Of a stretch of DNA of 63,160 nt, positions 16,672 through 22,934 are shown one piece after another (within the stretch, counting starts at the first letter, position 1; the number at the start of each line of letters is the position of its first letter). The DNA lies in the IMG/VR virus record IMGVR_UViG_3300042934_000776, positions 1 to 63,160 of that record; one strand, given 5' to 3'. Source of the stretch: a virus (lineage: Duplodnaviria; Caudoviricetes). Both the position numbers and the translations under genes were made by a program. The notes beneath the pieces are model-generated. The model was not told the DNA's origin, searched no databases, and saw only the letters and a list, made by a program, of their open reading frames with translations.

Positions 16672-16950
16672 CTACATCGCCGCGCCGAACTCGGCAAGCT
16701 CATCCTCGACGACCCTCGCGGACACTCTATCCGGGTCCGCCCCTGAAAGTGGAGCGATGATCGCCTCGTAGAACTTGGCGTGCTCCTTCGGGTCGTCGAT
16801 GTCCTTCGTGAACCAGGCGTAGACGAGGGTCAGAAAGCGTCCGAGGGGAAGCTCGAGGGGGTTGACACCGGCGAGTGCACACGCCCCGTCGATCTCCCAC
16901 CAGTTGTTGGCTGCTCCGGCGATGAGTCGGACGACGGCTGGGTAGGAAAA
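16672..16950 (-). CDS. Tail assembly chaperone, frameshifted (gpGT-like) extension
   Basis: Open -1 frame SYPAVVRL...WWEIDG...LPLGRFLTLVYAW...AAM* with no ATG of its own; shift near GAT TTT CCT ACC. Confidence 0.65.
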   Translation of the reverse strand, partial: FSYPAVVRLIAGAANNWWEIDGACALAGVNPLELPLGRFLTLVYAWFTKDIDDPKEHAKFYEAIIAPLSGADPDRVSARVVEDELAEFGAAM

Positions 16951-17357
16951 TCTGACCAGTACCCCACCATCTGACCCAGGAAGTCCATCAGGAACTCAAG
17001 CGGGATGCGCTGCTCCAGCGGGCCGGTGAGGCGATTGCGCAGCTTCAGGTACTCGCCAGTGCCGAGCTCCTGTTCGTGCGACTGGGCGCCTGGCTTCGGT
17101 GGGTTGTGCAGCAGTATGTCGCGGAGGCAGGCATCCACCTCAGATGCGGCATTCTCGGGGCGCGAGCTCGCGCCGAATGCGGTCGCCATCAGGAACAGGC
17201 GCTCTTCGGTGGGGCGAGTAAACGTGTACGCCTCCGAAAAGGTGACCTCGCCAGTGTCGTCGTCTCTTGTATCGAGGTTGATGCGCGCCTGCTGATTGAG
17301 GCGCTCCTTCTCTGCTCTGCGGCTCACGTGTGCGGTGAACGTCTGGGGCATGCTCAT
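16830..17357 (-). CDS. Tail assembly chaperone (gpG-like)
   Basis: Upstream of the tape measure gene; WSDFPTQPSS motif; RBS GGAAGGAG. Confidence 0.8.
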   Translation of the reverse strand: MSMPQTFTAHVSRRAEKERLNQQARINLDTRDDDTGEVTFSEAYTFTRPTEERLFLMATAFGASSRPENAASEVDACLRDILLHNPPKPGAQSHEQELGTGEYLKLRNRLTGPLEQRIPLEFLMDFLGQMVGYWSDFPTQPSSDSSPEQPTTGGRSTGRVHSPVSTPSSFPSDAF

Positions 17358-19171: not shown

Positions 19172-20503
19172 TCACAGCAGCAGCCATTCCCAGTCCGGCG
19201 TCCCCGCCGAGGCGACCTCGATGCTCGAGCCACTGGGCACCAGATACTGGCCGGGGGCCGCGCCCATCGAGACGCCGCCGATCGTGACACCCGTCACGGC
19301 GCCGGTGATTCCGACCAGCGCGTCGCGGTAGTACGGGTTCTCCACCACCACGCCGGGGGTGAGGGCGGGCTGGTCGGCGCGCGCGCCCGGGGCGATCTGG
19401 TCGTTGATGATCCGCATGCCGGCAGCCCCGTTGATGGTCAGGAACTGCTGGTAGATGTCGAGCAGGTTGATCCGGCCGACGAGCCGATTGTCGGGGTCGT
19501 AGACGTGCTCGGTGAACGCCGTGACGCCCTCGCCGCCCATCAGGTCGATGATGACCTGGGCGTTGGCTCCGTTGTTGTAGAGCCAGACGTAGGTCGCCTC
19601 GACCAGCAGGTGGTCGATCTGGAAGCCGTGCGTGGTGTAGCGCTGCGTGCCGTCCGGCCACTGCGGGCCGCCGGTGCCCTGGATGACGACGCCGCGGTTG
19701 CAGTAGACCAGGCCGATGAACGCCGCCTGCGTGTGCTCGCCGAGCGCGATCCCGATCCCGAGCCCCTCGGAGGTGTACGCCCCGATGGTGTTGCGGACGT
19801 TGTTCCCGGTGCGCGGCATGTAGACACCCGCGGTGGTGATCTCGGTCGGGGCGCCGATGGCCGGCACGGTGTTCAGCGAGCGATCCGCGAAGACGGACGC
19901 CGTGACGAGGCTGGCGTTCGCGACGAGCCGGAGGTCGATGCCGATGAGCGCGGTGGCGGCGTAGGGCACCTGGATCTGAATGCCGTCGAAGACCACGAGC
20001 ATGTTGGAGAGCGTCGCGTAGGTGTCCTGCGGGGCGTCCGCCAGGTTCGTCGGGCCGCCGATGACGGAGGGGGTGCCGAACTCGGCGTCGTCCACACCGT
20101 CCGCGAGCGTCGACTTGAGGACGGTGCCCATCGACTGCGGCGCGTTCTGGTTCCAGTACAGGAACGCCCCGGCGTCGGCCGCACCCCGGATGGTGAGGAC
20201 GATCTTGCGGTTCGTGCCGATGTTGTGCGGGATGGGGATCTGCGCGTTGCCGTACTCGTGGCCAGGCACCGGGTCGCCCGCGATGAGGTACTCGGCGGGC
20301 TGCGCCTGCACGGTGACGGCGTAGTTGTGGTCCGGCGCGGCCGCGATCGCTGCGGCGATGCATGCCTTCCATGCCGCCGTGTCGTCGGTCACGCCGTCGC
20401 CGACCGCGCCATAGTCCTCCGGGTAGAAGGTGCCAGCCACCGAGCCTCCGGGGATCGCGGAGGGTGGGAACGTGCCGTCAGGTCGCAGGGAGAGCAGTCT
20501 CAT
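19172..20503 (-). CDS. Pectate-lyase-3-like beta-helix protein (putative glycan depolymerase/spike)
   Basis: DYGAVGDGVTDDTAA motif; start MRLLSL overlaps the upstream stop. Confidence 0.8.
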   Translation of the reverse strand: MRLLSLRPDGTFPPSAIPGGSVAGTFYPEDYGAVGDGVTDDTAAWKACIAAAIAAAPDHNYAVTVQAQPAEYLIAGDPVPGHEYGNAQIPIPHNIGTNRKIVLTIRGAADAGAFLYWNQNAPQSMGTVLKSTLADGVDDAEFGTPSVIGGPTNLADAPQDTYATLSNMLVVFDGIQIQVPYAATALIGIDLRLVANASLVTASVFADRSLNTVPAIGAPTEITTAGVYMPRTGNNVRNTIGAYTSEGLGIGIALGEHTQAAFIGLVYCNRGVVIQGTGGPQWPDGTQRYTTHGFQIDHLLVEATYVWLYNNGANAQVIIDLMGGEGVTAFTEHVYDPDNRLVGRINLLDIYQQFLTINGAAGMRIINDQIAPGARADQPALTPGVVVENPYYRDALVGITGAVTGVTIGGVSMGAAPGQYLVPSGSSIEVASAGTPDWEWLLL

Positions 20504-21888
20504 CAGGGCACCTCGAAGATGATGTCGATGGCGTAGTAGGCAGTCGTGGTGCCGGTGATGAGCGTGTTCACGCCACGACCGGGGTCGCTCGCCTGCGAAA
20601 GCGACACATGCCCCGCGGCCGAGAAGATCGGATCGGCCAGCAGGCCCGGGACGATGATGTAGTACTGGCCGCCCGCGTACTGCACCGCGAGGGTGAGTAC
20701 GTCGTTCTCGCCCGGAGTGGTGGTCAGCGCGGGCAGCGTGATCGGCTCGTCGAACAGGATCTCCGTCCACTCCCCGGCCACGCGCGTCGCGGTGTGCACC
20801 TTCGTCGCCACCGGAGTTGAGCCCCAGGTGATGGAGCCGGCCAACTGCGCGCCCTGGTAGTCGTTCAGGTAGGCGTACGCCGTGACGTCGGTGCCGAGCA
20901 GCGTCGGGTCCGCCGCCGGTGGGTTCCACAACTTGAGGCCCGTGACGACCACGGCCAGGTCAGTCTGGAACCGGTTGCCCTGTCGCAGCGATCCACCACC
21001 GTCGGTGTAGATGTCGGCAGCCCCAGGGCTCGCCGAGCCGAAGACAGAGGCGGATCCGGTCGGTGGGGCCGCCACGATCGTGCCGGTGTACAGCTGGTCG
21101 TCGGATCCGGCGGCGTTCGTCGCGCGCACGGTGAACGAGTAGGCTCCCGACCCAGTGGGGGTGCCGGCCACGACAGGCAGCCCGCCGTTGAGCGACACCG
21201 AGAGCCCTGCAGGGACGGTGCCGAGGGTGCTCACCGACGCGATGGGACCGCCCGTGTTGGTCAGCGTCTGCGTGAACGCCTGGTTCTGGGTCATCTCGTT
21301 GAGCGTGGGCGGCCCGATGACGGGCGGCGACAGCGAGGCGGCCACCGTCCAGGGGATGACCTGCTCGTCGCTGCCCGCCACGTTCTCGACGGTCACCGAT
21401 GCACTGCCCGAACCAGCGGCGGTCGGCGTGCCGGAGACGATGCCGGTGGCGCCCATCGTCAGGCCCGCGGGCAGTCCCGTCGCGCCGAAGGTGAGCGGCG
21501 GATCGCCGACGACGACGATCTGCTGCGTGAAGGGAGAGTTCATCACCATCGAGTTGAACGCGGTCGTGATGATCGTCGGCGGCTCGGGCGCCGGTGCCGG
21601 TGCCCCGCCGATGATGATGTCCTGCGACCCCATGGCAGGCGGGTCCGTGCTCTGGGTGGTTCGGGTGTCGATCCAGAGCACGAGCCCACCCGGCGGACCC
21701 GGTCGTGCCGGGCTCGGGTTGCCGTCGGTGACGAAGACGAACCGGGTGTAGATCGACAGGTCGGGAGGGAGTGCGATGTCGCTCTCGAGCCCGTCGACGA
21801 ACTCCCTGAGCGCCTCCCACGACGCGACCATCCCCGCATACCACGGGTCGGTGTTCTCCGCGGGAATGTCAGCCGTGAAGGGCATCAC
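20503..21888 (-). CDS. Virion fibre-like protein with two Ig-like (He_PIG-type) domains and a C-terminal beta domain
   Basis: GLPAGLT...SGTPT..G repeats; C-terminus resembles DUF4082-type domains. Confidence 0.75.
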   Translation of the reverse strand: MMPFTADIPAENTDPWYAGMVASWEALREFVDGLESDIALPPDLSIYTRFVFVTDGNPSPARPGPPGGLVLWIDTRTTQSTDPPAMGSQDIIIGGAPAPAPEPPTIITTAFNSMVMNSPFTQQIVVVGDPPLTFGATGLPAGLTMGATGIVSGTPTAAGSGSASVTVENVAGSDEQVIPWTVAASLSPPVIGPPTLNEMTQNQAFTQTLTNTGGPIASVSTLGTVPAGLSVSLNGGLPVVAGTPTGSGAYSFTVRATNAAGSDDQLYTGTIVAAPPTGSASVFGSASPGAADIYTDGGGSLRQGNRFQTDLAVVVTGLKLWNPPAADPTLLGTDVTAYAYLNDYQGAQLAGSITWGSTPVATKVHTATRVAGEWTEILFDEPITLPALTTTPGENDVLTLAVQYAGGQYYIIVPGLLADPIFSAAGHVSLSQASDPGRGVNTLITGTTTAYYAIDIIFEVP

Positions 21889-21909
21889 TCATCTCCTCTG
21901 AATTGGGGA

Positions 21910-21947
21910 ACGGCCCCGCCTGAACCGCTGAGTTCAGGCGGGGCCGT
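21910..21947 (-). terminator. Hairpin after the major tail gene
   Basis: ACGGCCCCGCCTGAAC-N6-GTTCAGGCGGGGCCGT, 16-bp stem; contains the stop of the frameshift extension. Confidence 0.7.
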
Positions 21948-22011
21948 GGCCGAATGCTCCATGACCGAACGGGCCGTGCCCGAACCCAGTGGTGGGGCCT
22001 ACGGGAAAGGG
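21934..22011 (-). other. Putative -1 frameshift site and C-terminal extension of the major tail protein
   Basis: Slippery C CCT TTC (22011-22005) two codons before the stop; -1 frame reads PFPVGPTTGFGHGPFGHGAFGHGPA*. Confidence 0.65.
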
Positions 22012-22934
22012 ATGACCACGTCGGTCGTGACGACCGTGCCGTTCGAGGTGGCGCGGATCGTGTACGTGCCGTTGGCGGCATAGACGTGAGTCACCGCCGC
22101 CGTGCCCGGCTCGACGTAGTCCCATGTCCCGTCACCGAACTCGACGTAGACCGGTGCCGTGCTGGCGCCGGTGAACGTGATGGCCGCCTCGGTCGGACCT
22201 GCGCCTTCCGCTGCCACGACCGCCGTGATCGGGGTCGCGTCCGGGTCCATGACCGGCCGGGTGCCGTAGAACGGCTCCGGCGGGGCCACCGTGACCCAGA
22301 TGAGCAGCTTGTGGTCGTCCGGGTCCAGCGGCGTGAGCAGCGGGGCAGCGACGCCGCCCACCGACATCACGTTGTACGGACCCGAGCCCCACTGGTTGCC
22401 GTCGCGCGTGCGCGCTCCGGCGATCGTGAAGTTGATCGCGCCGTTCTCGACGGTGTAGCCGTCGATGTAGCCGCCCTTGAGGTAGGGCGCCAGGAAGTAC
22501 CCGTATCGACCGGTTGCCGTGGGGTCCGTGCAGGCGTCCGCGGCCGGCGAGCCGGCCCAGACCTCGAGCGCGTAGCCACGGTCGCCGAGGCTGATCTTCG
22601 AGTTGATCGTGAAGCCGATCGCGTCCCCGTTCTCGTCGAGGTAGACGCGCTGGCCGGTGATCAGCGAGAAGAGCTCCGGGTCAACCTCACAGAAGACCGC
22701 GGTCATCGTGTACCCGACGAACTCGGTCTCGGCCGGCTCGTAGATGCAGCGCTCGCCCGCGGCGTTGGTCTGGTTGATCTCGTCGGTGTCGAGAGTGTTG
22801 GCCTCCCAGGCGACGGAGACGAACCCCTTCGACACCGCCTGCGAAGCATCCCCGTAGACGACGCGACCACAGCCATCGAGCCGCGTCGCGCGCATGCGAC
22901 GGCCCTTGACGGAGCCGTATCCCTTGGAAGCCAT
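21999..22934 (-). CDS. Major tail protein with C-terminal PKD-like domain
   Basis: RATRLDGCG...FCEVDPEL...ALEVWAG family motifs; FGDG...THVY...GTYTI. Confidence 0.9.
   Translation of the reverse strand: MASKGYGSVKGRRMRATRLDGCGRVVYGDASQAVSKGFVSVAWEANTLDTDEINQTNAAGERCIYEPAETEFVGYTMTAVFCEVDPELFSLITGQRVYLDENGDAIGFTINSKISLGDRGYALEVWAGSPAADACTDPTATGRYGYFLAPYLKGGYIDGYTVENGAINFTIAGARTRDGNQWGSGPYNVMSVGGVAAPLLTPLDPDDHKLLIWVTVAPPEPFYGTRPVMDPDATPITAVVAAEGAGPTEAAITFTGASTAPVYVEFGDGTWDYVEPGTAAVTHVYAANGTYTIRATSNGTVVTTDVVIPFP

Follow-up and report, generated by a model that had tools for sequence, protein, structure and literature searches.

A putative -1 frameshift at the end of a siphophage tail protein gene and a three-repeat peptide that may dock the product of the next gene

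The question raised by this locus is whether the major tail protein gene of a siphophage encodes a second, longer product and, if so, what the added residues would do. The stretch of DNA analysed, called the window below, is the whole of virus record IMGVR_UViG_3300042934_000776, a complete record of 63,160 bases. It represents a siphophage genome akin to Microbacterium phages Squash, Hyperion and OneinaGillian; these and their kin are the nearest isolated phages, at about 63-66% protein identity. On the minus strand of the window, an open reading frame (ORF) of 311 amino acids (21999..22934) matches PHROG 792, 'major tail protein', with an E value of 1.6e-78. The simplest reading of its 3' end is a -1 programmed frameshift that would yield a minor, longer tail protein. 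From the comparison of sequences, we regard this frameshift product as very probably real and, with clearly less assurance, we favour a role of its extension in docking the fibre-like product of the next gene, the latter view being based on co-occurrence and on one structure model.

Read on the minus strand, the gene ends with GAC GTG GTC ATC CCT TTC CCG TAG. The slippery heptamer that the first-pass annotation of the window had noticed is present and in the correct phase: C_CCT_TTC (22005..22011, minus strand), of the X_XXY_YYZ form, covers codons Pro309 and Phe310 of 311 and is followed, one codon further, by the 0-frame stop TAG (21999..22001, minus strand). In the -1 frame, CCC GTA GGC CCC ACC ACT GGG is followed by three repeat units and by GCC TGA. 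This gives the extension PVGPTTGFGHGPFGHGAFGHGPA (21934..22005, minus strand, with its stop TGA at 21936..21934), which is recognized from the sequence and from the -1-frame coding signature described below. In the -1-frame reading, its three pentapeptide repeats (21940..21984, minus strand) are written TTC GGG CAC GGC CCG, TTC GGT CAT GGA GCA and TTC GGC CAC GGC CCC, that is, with different codons, as had been remarked. The long product predicted from this reading, ..IPF-PVGPTTG-FGHGP-FGHGA-FGHGP-A-stop, is the one first proposed and would count 310 + 23 = 333 amino acids versus 311; the predicted trans-frame peptide across the junction is ..VVIPFPVGPTTGFGHG... The 23 residues of the extension are rich in Gly and Pro, include the three pentapeptide repeats and do not form a folded immunoglobulin-like (Ig-like), FN3 or carbohydrate-binding domain.

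Taken by itself, the window is unimpressive with respect to chance. Its GC content is 67.7%, and at least 22 open -1 codons are found past the stop in 76% of its 74 gene-like ORFs. An in-phase X_XXY_YYZ heptamer occurs within the last five codons of two of these 74 ORFs, in-phase CCCTTTC occurs in no other gene-like ORF of the window, and CCT accounts for 7.1% of the proline codons. The case for more than chance comes from the relatives.

Gene ends were gathered from 10 annotated phage records, from uncultured viral contigs reached via the tail protein, the repeat pattern or the N-terminus of the next gene's product, from metagenome contigs and from the window, which gave 21 distinct versions. 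They come from Microbacterium phages (the Squash/Hyperion/OneinaGillian group and Hendrix) and from uncultured contigs. The heptamer and the aromatic-Gly repeat, whose conservation in related phages the first-pass annotation had proposed to examine, are both widely kept: CCCTTTC stands in phase in 19 of the 21 versions, and the -1 frame of all 21 specifies three (F/Y/L)-G-H-G-P repeats. The two other sites are G_GCT_TTC in L032, which retains the shift-prone U_UUC tetramer, and G_GGA_AAA in L026, another canonical heptamer found at the same place and followed by one codon and TAG; the L026 tail protein is 44% identical to that of the window over residues 2-228 and has a different C-terminus. 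The 0-frame stop lies one codon past the heptamer in 20 of the 21 versions and four codons past it in L164. The stop itself varies (TAG, TGA or TAA), as does the codon between heptamer and stop (CCG, GCC, ACC, AGC or GCG). Despite its rarity, CCT is invariant in the CCCTTTC versions, while the proline codons of the repeats vary (CCG 12, CCT 8, CCA 8, CCC 6). Relatives without the extension read CCG TTC at the position of the heptamer.

The feature is not confined to close relatives of the window. Hendrix and Rasputia (97 kb), which are unrelated to the Squash group, share the heptamer and the extension; their tail protein shows 36% identity over residues 1-219 and has a different C-terminus, ending ..WAPFS. 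The DNA similarity between the window and these two phages begins exactly at the heptamer (query position 60). This gene end is shared by 44 isolate records. Neither a joined tail protein coding sequence (CDS) nor an annotated shift was found in any of the 10 records examined, whereas the Squash record does join its chaperone CDS.

The coding potential of the -1 frame was examined on 22 distinct 42-nt repeat cores of the frameshift type, collected with scripts that required three repeats. Minimal changes were distributed 9/7/32 over -1-frame codon positions 1/2/3 (chi-square p = 5.8e-6), and 64% of the pairwise differing codons were synonymous in the -1 frame versus 5.1% and 6.5% in the other frames. 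When the in-frame versions described below were added, the distribution was 8/6/34. Selection on the peptide, initially suggested from the codon differences among the repeats of the window, is thus borne out. The aromatic position is replaced only conservatively, by F, Y or L, and the His is least conserved in repeat 1 and kept in repeats 2 and 3. Three repeats were found in every tail obtained from head-based searches (see below), which set no repeat number. In the 36 nt upstream of the heptamer, the ungapped change count was 23/21/20; indels put the sequences out of register there, and this count is uninformative either way.

The same peptide also forms part, in frame, of other structural proteins, and is thus a genuine element of proteins. 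A 235-aa protein of L020, encoded directly past the tape measure gene, carries ..GYGHGPYGHGAYGQS as its in-frame C-terminus, and ..GYGHGPYGHGPYGKGI terminates another ORF, again in frame, in L023. A third case is L025 (reverse strand of a 44-kb contig), where GFGHGPFGHGLFGHGS is internal to a baseplate-region protein of 747 aa. No in-frame aromatic-G-x-G repeat tail was found in the best 120 of 795 tail-protein homologues, so that the tail is kept out of frame on this protein, and 56 tail-protein homologues end in PFP. In bacterial genomes, scanning for the repeat pattern gave at least 120 loci; among the matches listed, two had a loose three-repeat match, both within unrelated ORFs, and neither the head motif nor a prophage copy was found among them. 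A tblastn search of a phage collection with the 25-residue extension gave no match; the short repetitive query was probably masked, so that this result has no bearing on the distribution. On the whole, we infer that the extension would be translated as part of the tail protein.

The site can be compared with the rules of frameshifting in bacteria. U_UU.C is among the three most shift-prone tetramers in E. coli, and the rules for Z = U also admit that the P-site tRNA re-pairs cognately (Sharma et al., PMC4066793). Under these bacterial rules, re-pairing is cognate both from CCU to CCC and from UUC to UUU (PMC4066793). Further downstream, the window contains a perfect 15-bp GC-rich, terminator-like hairpin, CGGCCCCGCCTGAAC / GTTCAGGCGGGGCCG (21911..21946, minus strand), which holds the -1 stop in its 5' arm, in agreement with the first reading. 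In an RNAalifold consensus of 20 sequences, this distal hairpin, about 60 nt past the heptamer (columns 84-120 of alignment A3), was the only well-kept structure, and in one of its pairs (columns 91/113) both sides change, from G-C to A-U, in 4 sequences. Of the 20 aligned versions, 11 have the -1 stop within the 5' arm, and in most others it precedes the arm by 4-13 nt; a -1-frame ribosome terminating in the 5' arm would melt the hairpin. Near the site, only two short, mostly invariant helices were obtained. Upstream, no conserved Shine-Dalgarno-like sequence was noticed when two alignments were read by eye, no search having been aimed at one.

Three explanations that do without a functional extended tail protein have to be weighed at this point. 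According to one of them, which we consider very unlikely, there is no frameshift, and what mimics an ORF in a GC-rich genome is a conserved element without coding function, made of a terminator and three 15-bp repeats (for example a protein- or RNA-binding site). Such an element would be at ease with the high share of long open off-frames in the window, with a shift annotated in none of the records checked and with a stimulatory structure that was not found; it would not explain why the three-nucleotide periodicity is in phase with one frame only, why other loci encode this peptide in frame and with other codons, why the rare CCT is invariant in the CCCTTTC versions when the repeat proline codons are free, or why L026 has a different heptamer at the same place. 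A second explanation, to which we give equally little credence, makes the shift mainly regulatory: -1 ribosomes would melt the terminator-like hairpin and thereby tune read-through into, or translation of, the fibre gene, the peptide being incidental. The position of the -1 stop in or just before the 5' arm and the conservation of the hairpin, with its pair changing on both sides, are what would be expected. Against it stand the selection at the amino acid level (synonymous third-position changes and F/Y/L replacements), the in-frame L020 and L023, which keep the peptide without the hairpin and whose next gene overlaps or is only 5 nt away, and L026 and L161, where the hairpins are placed differently. 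Least probable of all, to the point of being barely credible, is a repeat peptide made separately from an internal -1-frame start codon. The window does have a 63-codon -1-frame ORF with an ATG at 22125, and in 8 of 20 versions a -1-frame ATG, GTG or TTG precedes the heptamer by 21-27 nt. In the 12 other versions, however, no such codon exists in the -1 frame from -36 to +30 of the heptamer; the positions of those present are not conserved, the -1 peptide upstream of the heptamer is unconserved and Arg/His-rich, as for the off-frame of a real gene, and the conserved in-phase slippery site would be left unexplained.

The proposed partner of the extension is the product of the next gene (20503..21885, minus strand), which encodes 460 amino acids from ATG 21885 and is delimited by the ORF, by a Pfam He_PIG match (E 5e-14) and by homologue alignments. 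A Shine-Dalgarno-like GAGGAG (21893..21898, minus strand) precedes this ATG. The ORF is also open from GTG 21888; ATG 21885 together with GAGGAG agrees with the start of all homologues (MPF..), and the protein is therefore probably 460 residues long. N-terminal alignments define a conserved head, MPFTADIPAENTDPWY.. (about 21742..21885, minus strand). In every locus with the repeat tail, the next gene starts with M-P-(F/Y)-N-x-x-L-P-A-E-N-T-D-P-W-Y or a close variant. The region after the head varies and consists of Ig-like He_PIG domains in the window, a right-handed beta-helix in L020 and coiled-coil-like stretches in Squash, Hendrix and others. A conserved head with a variable rest is how a fibre or tailspike with an N-terminal anchor is built, and the protein may thus be described as fibre-like.

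When the head alone was used for searching, without the repeat, 16 distinct contigs were found, and the three-repeat tail lay directly upstream of the head in 15 of them (13 by frameshift, one in frame and one cut by the contig end). The exception, L036, shares its 44-kb contig with L025, and its head gene follows a tail protein without extension; L025/L036 is the only case in which the tail and the head are not adjacent. Relatives without the heptamer or without the -1 frame, which the first-pass annotation had named as evidence against the frameshift, do exist: L005-L012 have neither the heptamer nor a coding -1 frame. The conclusion drawn in advance from such relatives does not follow for L005-L009, in which the head domain was found in none of the five records at E<=1, four of these records being at least 90% complete. 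As L005-L009 also lack the partner gene, they can be regarded as losses or absences of the whole module and not as counter-examples. As positive controls, four records with the tail matched the head at E 1.5e-15 to 2.9e-22, and the window at 2.8e-23. The tail-less L010 record gave a marginal head match (E 0.0025, 14 bits), located outside the motif.

Repeat and head types vary together, perfectly in our sample: F-type repeats are found with heads reading ..W..L.FVNGLE, L-type repeats with ..FIGGLR.FVNALE and Y-type repeats with ..R..D..LK. Since the varying head positions are outside the predicted interface and the elements are adjacent, we take this pattern to reflect common ancestry and do not count it as a sign of co-evolution. 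SallyK (L001) and Casend (L002) have the same last 15 tail-protein residues and different cassettes, namely F-type repeats with a W-type head and L-type repeats with an F-type head. The Y-type cassette known from OneinaGillian is present in Phinky and Fizzles (Squashvirus). It seems that recombination exchanges extension and head jointly, with a breakpoint near the heptamer. In L020 (43-7374), an HNH-endonuclease-like ORF follows the tape measure gene and the protein after it looks split; the order is the 235-aa N-terminal part with the repeat tail, the head-bearing beta-helix protein (637 aa) and a 371-aa ORF, which resembles the C-terminal part of a 612-aa protein of L025. It looks as if a tail-plus-head cassette had been inserted into that split gene.

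A complex was modelled from three copies of the window's head (residues 1-90, 18-row alignment) and a 30-residue -1-frame peptide (18 rows). The score was 0.73, versus 0.00 for the best of three controls. Of 80 solved complexes, 58 attain this mark, as do 2 of 110 mismatched pairs; these counts are rough for a run using its own alignments and three copies. The runs agreed in at least 95% of the contacts, and the predicted local distance difference test score (pLDDT) of the partner was at least 73. In each of the three head copies of the model, residues 7-17 and 19, which include the invariant P-E-N-P-W-Y, touch residues 10-28 of the peptide, that is, the three repeats; the predicted contact residues 7-19 are encoded at 21829..21867 (minus strand). 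The model supports a putative binding of the peptide to the head. Taken together with the co-occurrence of tail and head in 15 of 16 contigs, it lends support to the role of docking tag that had been suggested from the window.

The protein that would carry the extension is made of an N-terminal beta-rich domain, a disordered linker and a C-terminal PKD/Ig-like domain. Pfam PKD PF00801 matches residues 242-298 with 25.0 bits, versus a cut-off of 23.5. In an AlphaFold2 (AF2) model of the 311-aa protein (pLDDT 60.5), an Ig-like beta-sandwich is found at residues 238-308, with a pLDDT of about 75-92 there, and Foldseek matched this C-terminus with PKD domains (e.g. 4xed, probability 1.00). The PKD domain belongs to the 0-frame protein and not to the extension. 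Matches of the model to tail-tube proteins (T5 pb6, lambda gpV, DT57C, Chi, Douge) were weak (E 3e-3 to 5e-2), none reaching E<=0.001 in the fold search with the AF2 model, and a sequence search of solved structures with the 311-aa protein gave no match at E<=0.01. The protein is the sole tail-tube candidate of the structural module, no other being encoded from the neck genes to the tape measure gene, and its relatives carry the annotation 'major tail protein'. On the basis of the PHROG label, the annotation of the relatives, the position and the weak fold matches, it is assumed to be the tail-tube protein and to be located on the tube.

From these elements, the following sequence of events can be proposed. 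Most ribosomes translating the tail-tube gene would halt at TAG and produce the 311-aa protein. A minority would slip back by one base, tRNA-Pro and tRNA-Phe on CCU and UUC of C_CCU_UUC re-pairing with CCC and UUU, and would read 23 more codons to give the 333-aa form ending in PVGPTTG-FGHGP-FGHGA-FGHGP-A. The extension would hang off the outward-facing C-terminal Ig-like (PKD) domain, and its three aromatic-Gly-His-Gly-Pro repeats would act as a plug binding the head (..PAENTDPWY..) of the next gene's fibre-like protein, probably with one repeat per protomer of an assumed head trimer. The frameshift rate would then set the number of fibre-bearing tail-tube subunits. In a wider and more tentative form, which we hold with less than balanced confidence, the repeat peptide and the PAENxDPWY head would be a portable plug-and-socket of Microbacteriaceae phages, the repeats being threaded one per protomer and the plug being grafted on ring-forming tail proteins, with the shift rate setting the number of fibres or enzymes on the tail. 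A single chain with three repeats would bridge the mismatch between one tube subunit and a three-fold fibre or depolymerase. The carriers of the plug would be the tail tube, a protein encoded past the tape measure gene and one from the baseplate region; on the tube protein, which is abundant, a slippery site would hold the plug out of frame.

Several points weigh against this proposal. The tail and the N-terminus of the partner are only about 100 nt apart, and at such a spacing their co-occurrence and co-variation could reflect a single recombination cassette and not binding. The term 'tail tube' rests on the PHROG label, the position and the weak fold matches of a model of mediocre quality (pLDDT 60.5). 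The complex run used its own alignments and an assumed trimer, and the first five residues of its peptide chain (DRRGH) belong to the upstream -1 reading, outside the predicted product; moreover, the window partner, unlike its homologues, has no coiled-coil-like stretch after the head, which makes a trimer less certain here. As for the shift, a conserved stimulatory structure 5-9 nt past the heptamer was not found by RNAalifold in the 20 sequences, and the best heptamers without stimulators reach about 0.3% in E. coli (PMC4066793), so that the long form could be very rare. Proteomic, ribosome-profiling or reporter evidence for these phages was not found in the accessible portions of the literature. 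Finally, L005, the closest uncultured relative found via the tail protein (80% identity, ending in IPFP), lacks the whole feature, which is therefore dispensable.

These points leave room for a reading in which the frameshift is real and the peptide has another role, such as binding metal or the cell wall through its His and aromatic residues, pH-dependent self-sticking, or serving as an arm to neighbouring tube subunits. We judge it somewhat unlikely, and a good deal more probable than any of the three explanations discussed above. The evidence for the frameshift fits it equally well, the His is kept in repeats 2 and 3, the close linkage can account for the co-occurrence with the next gene, and Tyr-type tails share GHGPY with the self-coacervating peptide DgHBP-2 (PMC9845597). 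What speaks for docking instead is that in L020 and L023 the tails are on other proteins and the same head is still next, that in the contig of the lone head gene, which has no tail upstream, the motif is found on another tail protein, that tail and head are lost together in relatives, and that the complex model passes its controls. L020, L023 and the in trans case L025/L036 argue for more than linkage, but these cases are few.

Frameshift-extended tail-tube proteins are established; what appears new here is a 23-residue repeat peptide that appears to recruit a separately encoded protein. The frameshift of Bacillus phage SPP1 is a +1 shift. It takes place at the 3' end of the gene and gives gp17.1 and gp17.1*, both present in the tube in a short:long ratio of 3:1, the long form having an FN3 extension (PMC8718954). 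The likeness lies in a single tail-tube gene giving short and C-terminally extended forms by a shift at its 3' end. In SPP1, however, the extension is a folded FN3/Ig-like domain placed right after the tube domain, whereas the 0-frame protein here already has an Ig-like (PKD) domain and the shift would add a peptide of 23 residues. In TpeX of lactococcal 936-group phages, the shift comes after an Ig-like adhesin domain and the product, of 470-530 residues in total and with a carbohydrate-binding module in its extension, decorates a fraction of the tube subunits (PMC6669499). A programmed frameshift past the Ig-like domain of the major tail protein is common to both systems; the TpeX extension is long and brings its own binding module, whereas the present one would recruit a separately encoded protein.

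Other known shifts are more distant. In the tsh genes of Listeria phages PSA, A118 and A500 a +1 shift occurs at CCC_UGA, and in Lactobacillus phage A2 the shift is -1 (PMC5009743); their extensions are domains, Ig-like where described, and the direction differs in the Listeria phages. In T7 10A/10B, a -1 shift near the end of the major structural gene gives a non-Ig-like extension (PMC5009743). T7 10A/10B differs in being a capsid and not a tail protein and in having no repeat peptide, and the available portion of that source mentions no partner protein (PMC5009743). The conserved -1 shift of lambda G/GT, located in the cluster of tail genes, sets the proportion of two products (PMC5009743); these are chaperones absent from the virion and encoded by another gene, for which the window has its own candidate (16830-17357). 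Phage fibres and tailspikes have a conserved N-terminal anchor domain joined to variable distal parts. The conserved head with its variable distal parts (He_PIG, beta-helix or coiled-coil-like) resembles this arrangement; the difference is that the proposed socket takes a short three-repeat peptide produced by frameshifting and not a folded adaptor or baseplate domain. Tyr-type tails YGHGPYGHGPYGH (L003, L004, L015, L018, L020, L023 and L024) contain GHGPY, which is the repeated pentapeptide of the self-coacervating squid-beak peptide DgHBP-2 (PMC9845597). Apart from this likeness, DgHBP-2 belongs to a structural protein of an animal, has five repeats and coacervates alone; there is no homology, and the resemblance is convergent only. 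In the accessible portions of the literature on Microbacterium phages, on the repeat peptide and on fibre anchoring, no description of this frameshift, of the repeat peptide or of the plug/head pair was found.

The surroundings of the locus are as follows. On the minus strand, the gene order begins with the portal, a MuF/protease fusion, the major capsid protein, two small genes and the tail protein gene, which is followed by the 460-aa He_PIG protein, a 441-aa pectate-lyase-like protein and the head-tail adaptor; beyond the adaptor come neck proteins, a 175-aa chaperone candidate, the tape measure, the distal tail protein, minor tail proteins and the lysin. The Squash/Hyperion/OneinaGillian group corresponds to Cluster EG, in which the gene for the major tail protein sits atypically, upstream of some head-to-tail connector genes (Jacobs-Sera et al. 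2020, PMC7302621); the available portion of this source does not mention a frameshift in that gene. The 441-aa protein (19172..20497, minus strand) is pectate-lyase/tailspike-like according to a weak Pfam match (Pect-lyase_RHGA_epim, E 0.003, below the cut-off) and weak PHROG tailspike matches. The 585-aa ORF 19172-20929 to which it belongs probably starts at ATG 20497, just past the stop of the upstream gene, and the protein has a GDGxTDD motif, typical of pectate-lyase-like tailspikes. Its gene, like that of the fibre-like protein, is part of the segment inserted after the tail-tube gene and ahead of the head-tail adaptor gene, and its link to the present finding is uncertain. In Squash and Hendrix, the same slot is occupied by a 'phosphoesterase' gene, and no similarity was detected between the 441-aa protein and the 'phosphoesterase' gp32 of Squash (best E 0.22). 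The second inserted gene thus appears exchangeable, only the head of the first gene's product belonging to the module.

Upstream of the tape measure gene, the 175-aa ORF 16830-17357 (minus strand) is accompanied by an overlapping -1-frame ORF that reaches toward the tape measure gene (gap to 16646). The two are probably a chaperone frameshift of the G/GT type, and their overlap in the window contains A_ACC_CCC. In Squash, a CCCTTTC is overlapped by the annotated joined chaperone CDS and does not stand in phase with the 0 frame (chaperone region listed as L172 11149-11801).

If the shift is real, the 44 isolate records sharing this gene end lack a form of a virion protein in their annotation, and similar sites would be worth seeking at the ends of actinophage tail-protein genes, beyond the chaperone genes. 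Both the frameshift and the docking claims are directly testable with cultured phages, which grow on a harmless soil bacterium, Microbacterium foliorum being the laboratory host of Squash, Hyperion, OneinaGillian and Hendrix. The known frameshift extensions of tail and capsid proteins bring their own binding domain, whereas here a short adaptor peptide would recruit a fibre or an enzyme. If this is true, it would represent a new way of setting the copy number of an accessory virion protein, by means of a compact and transferable peptide-domain pair.

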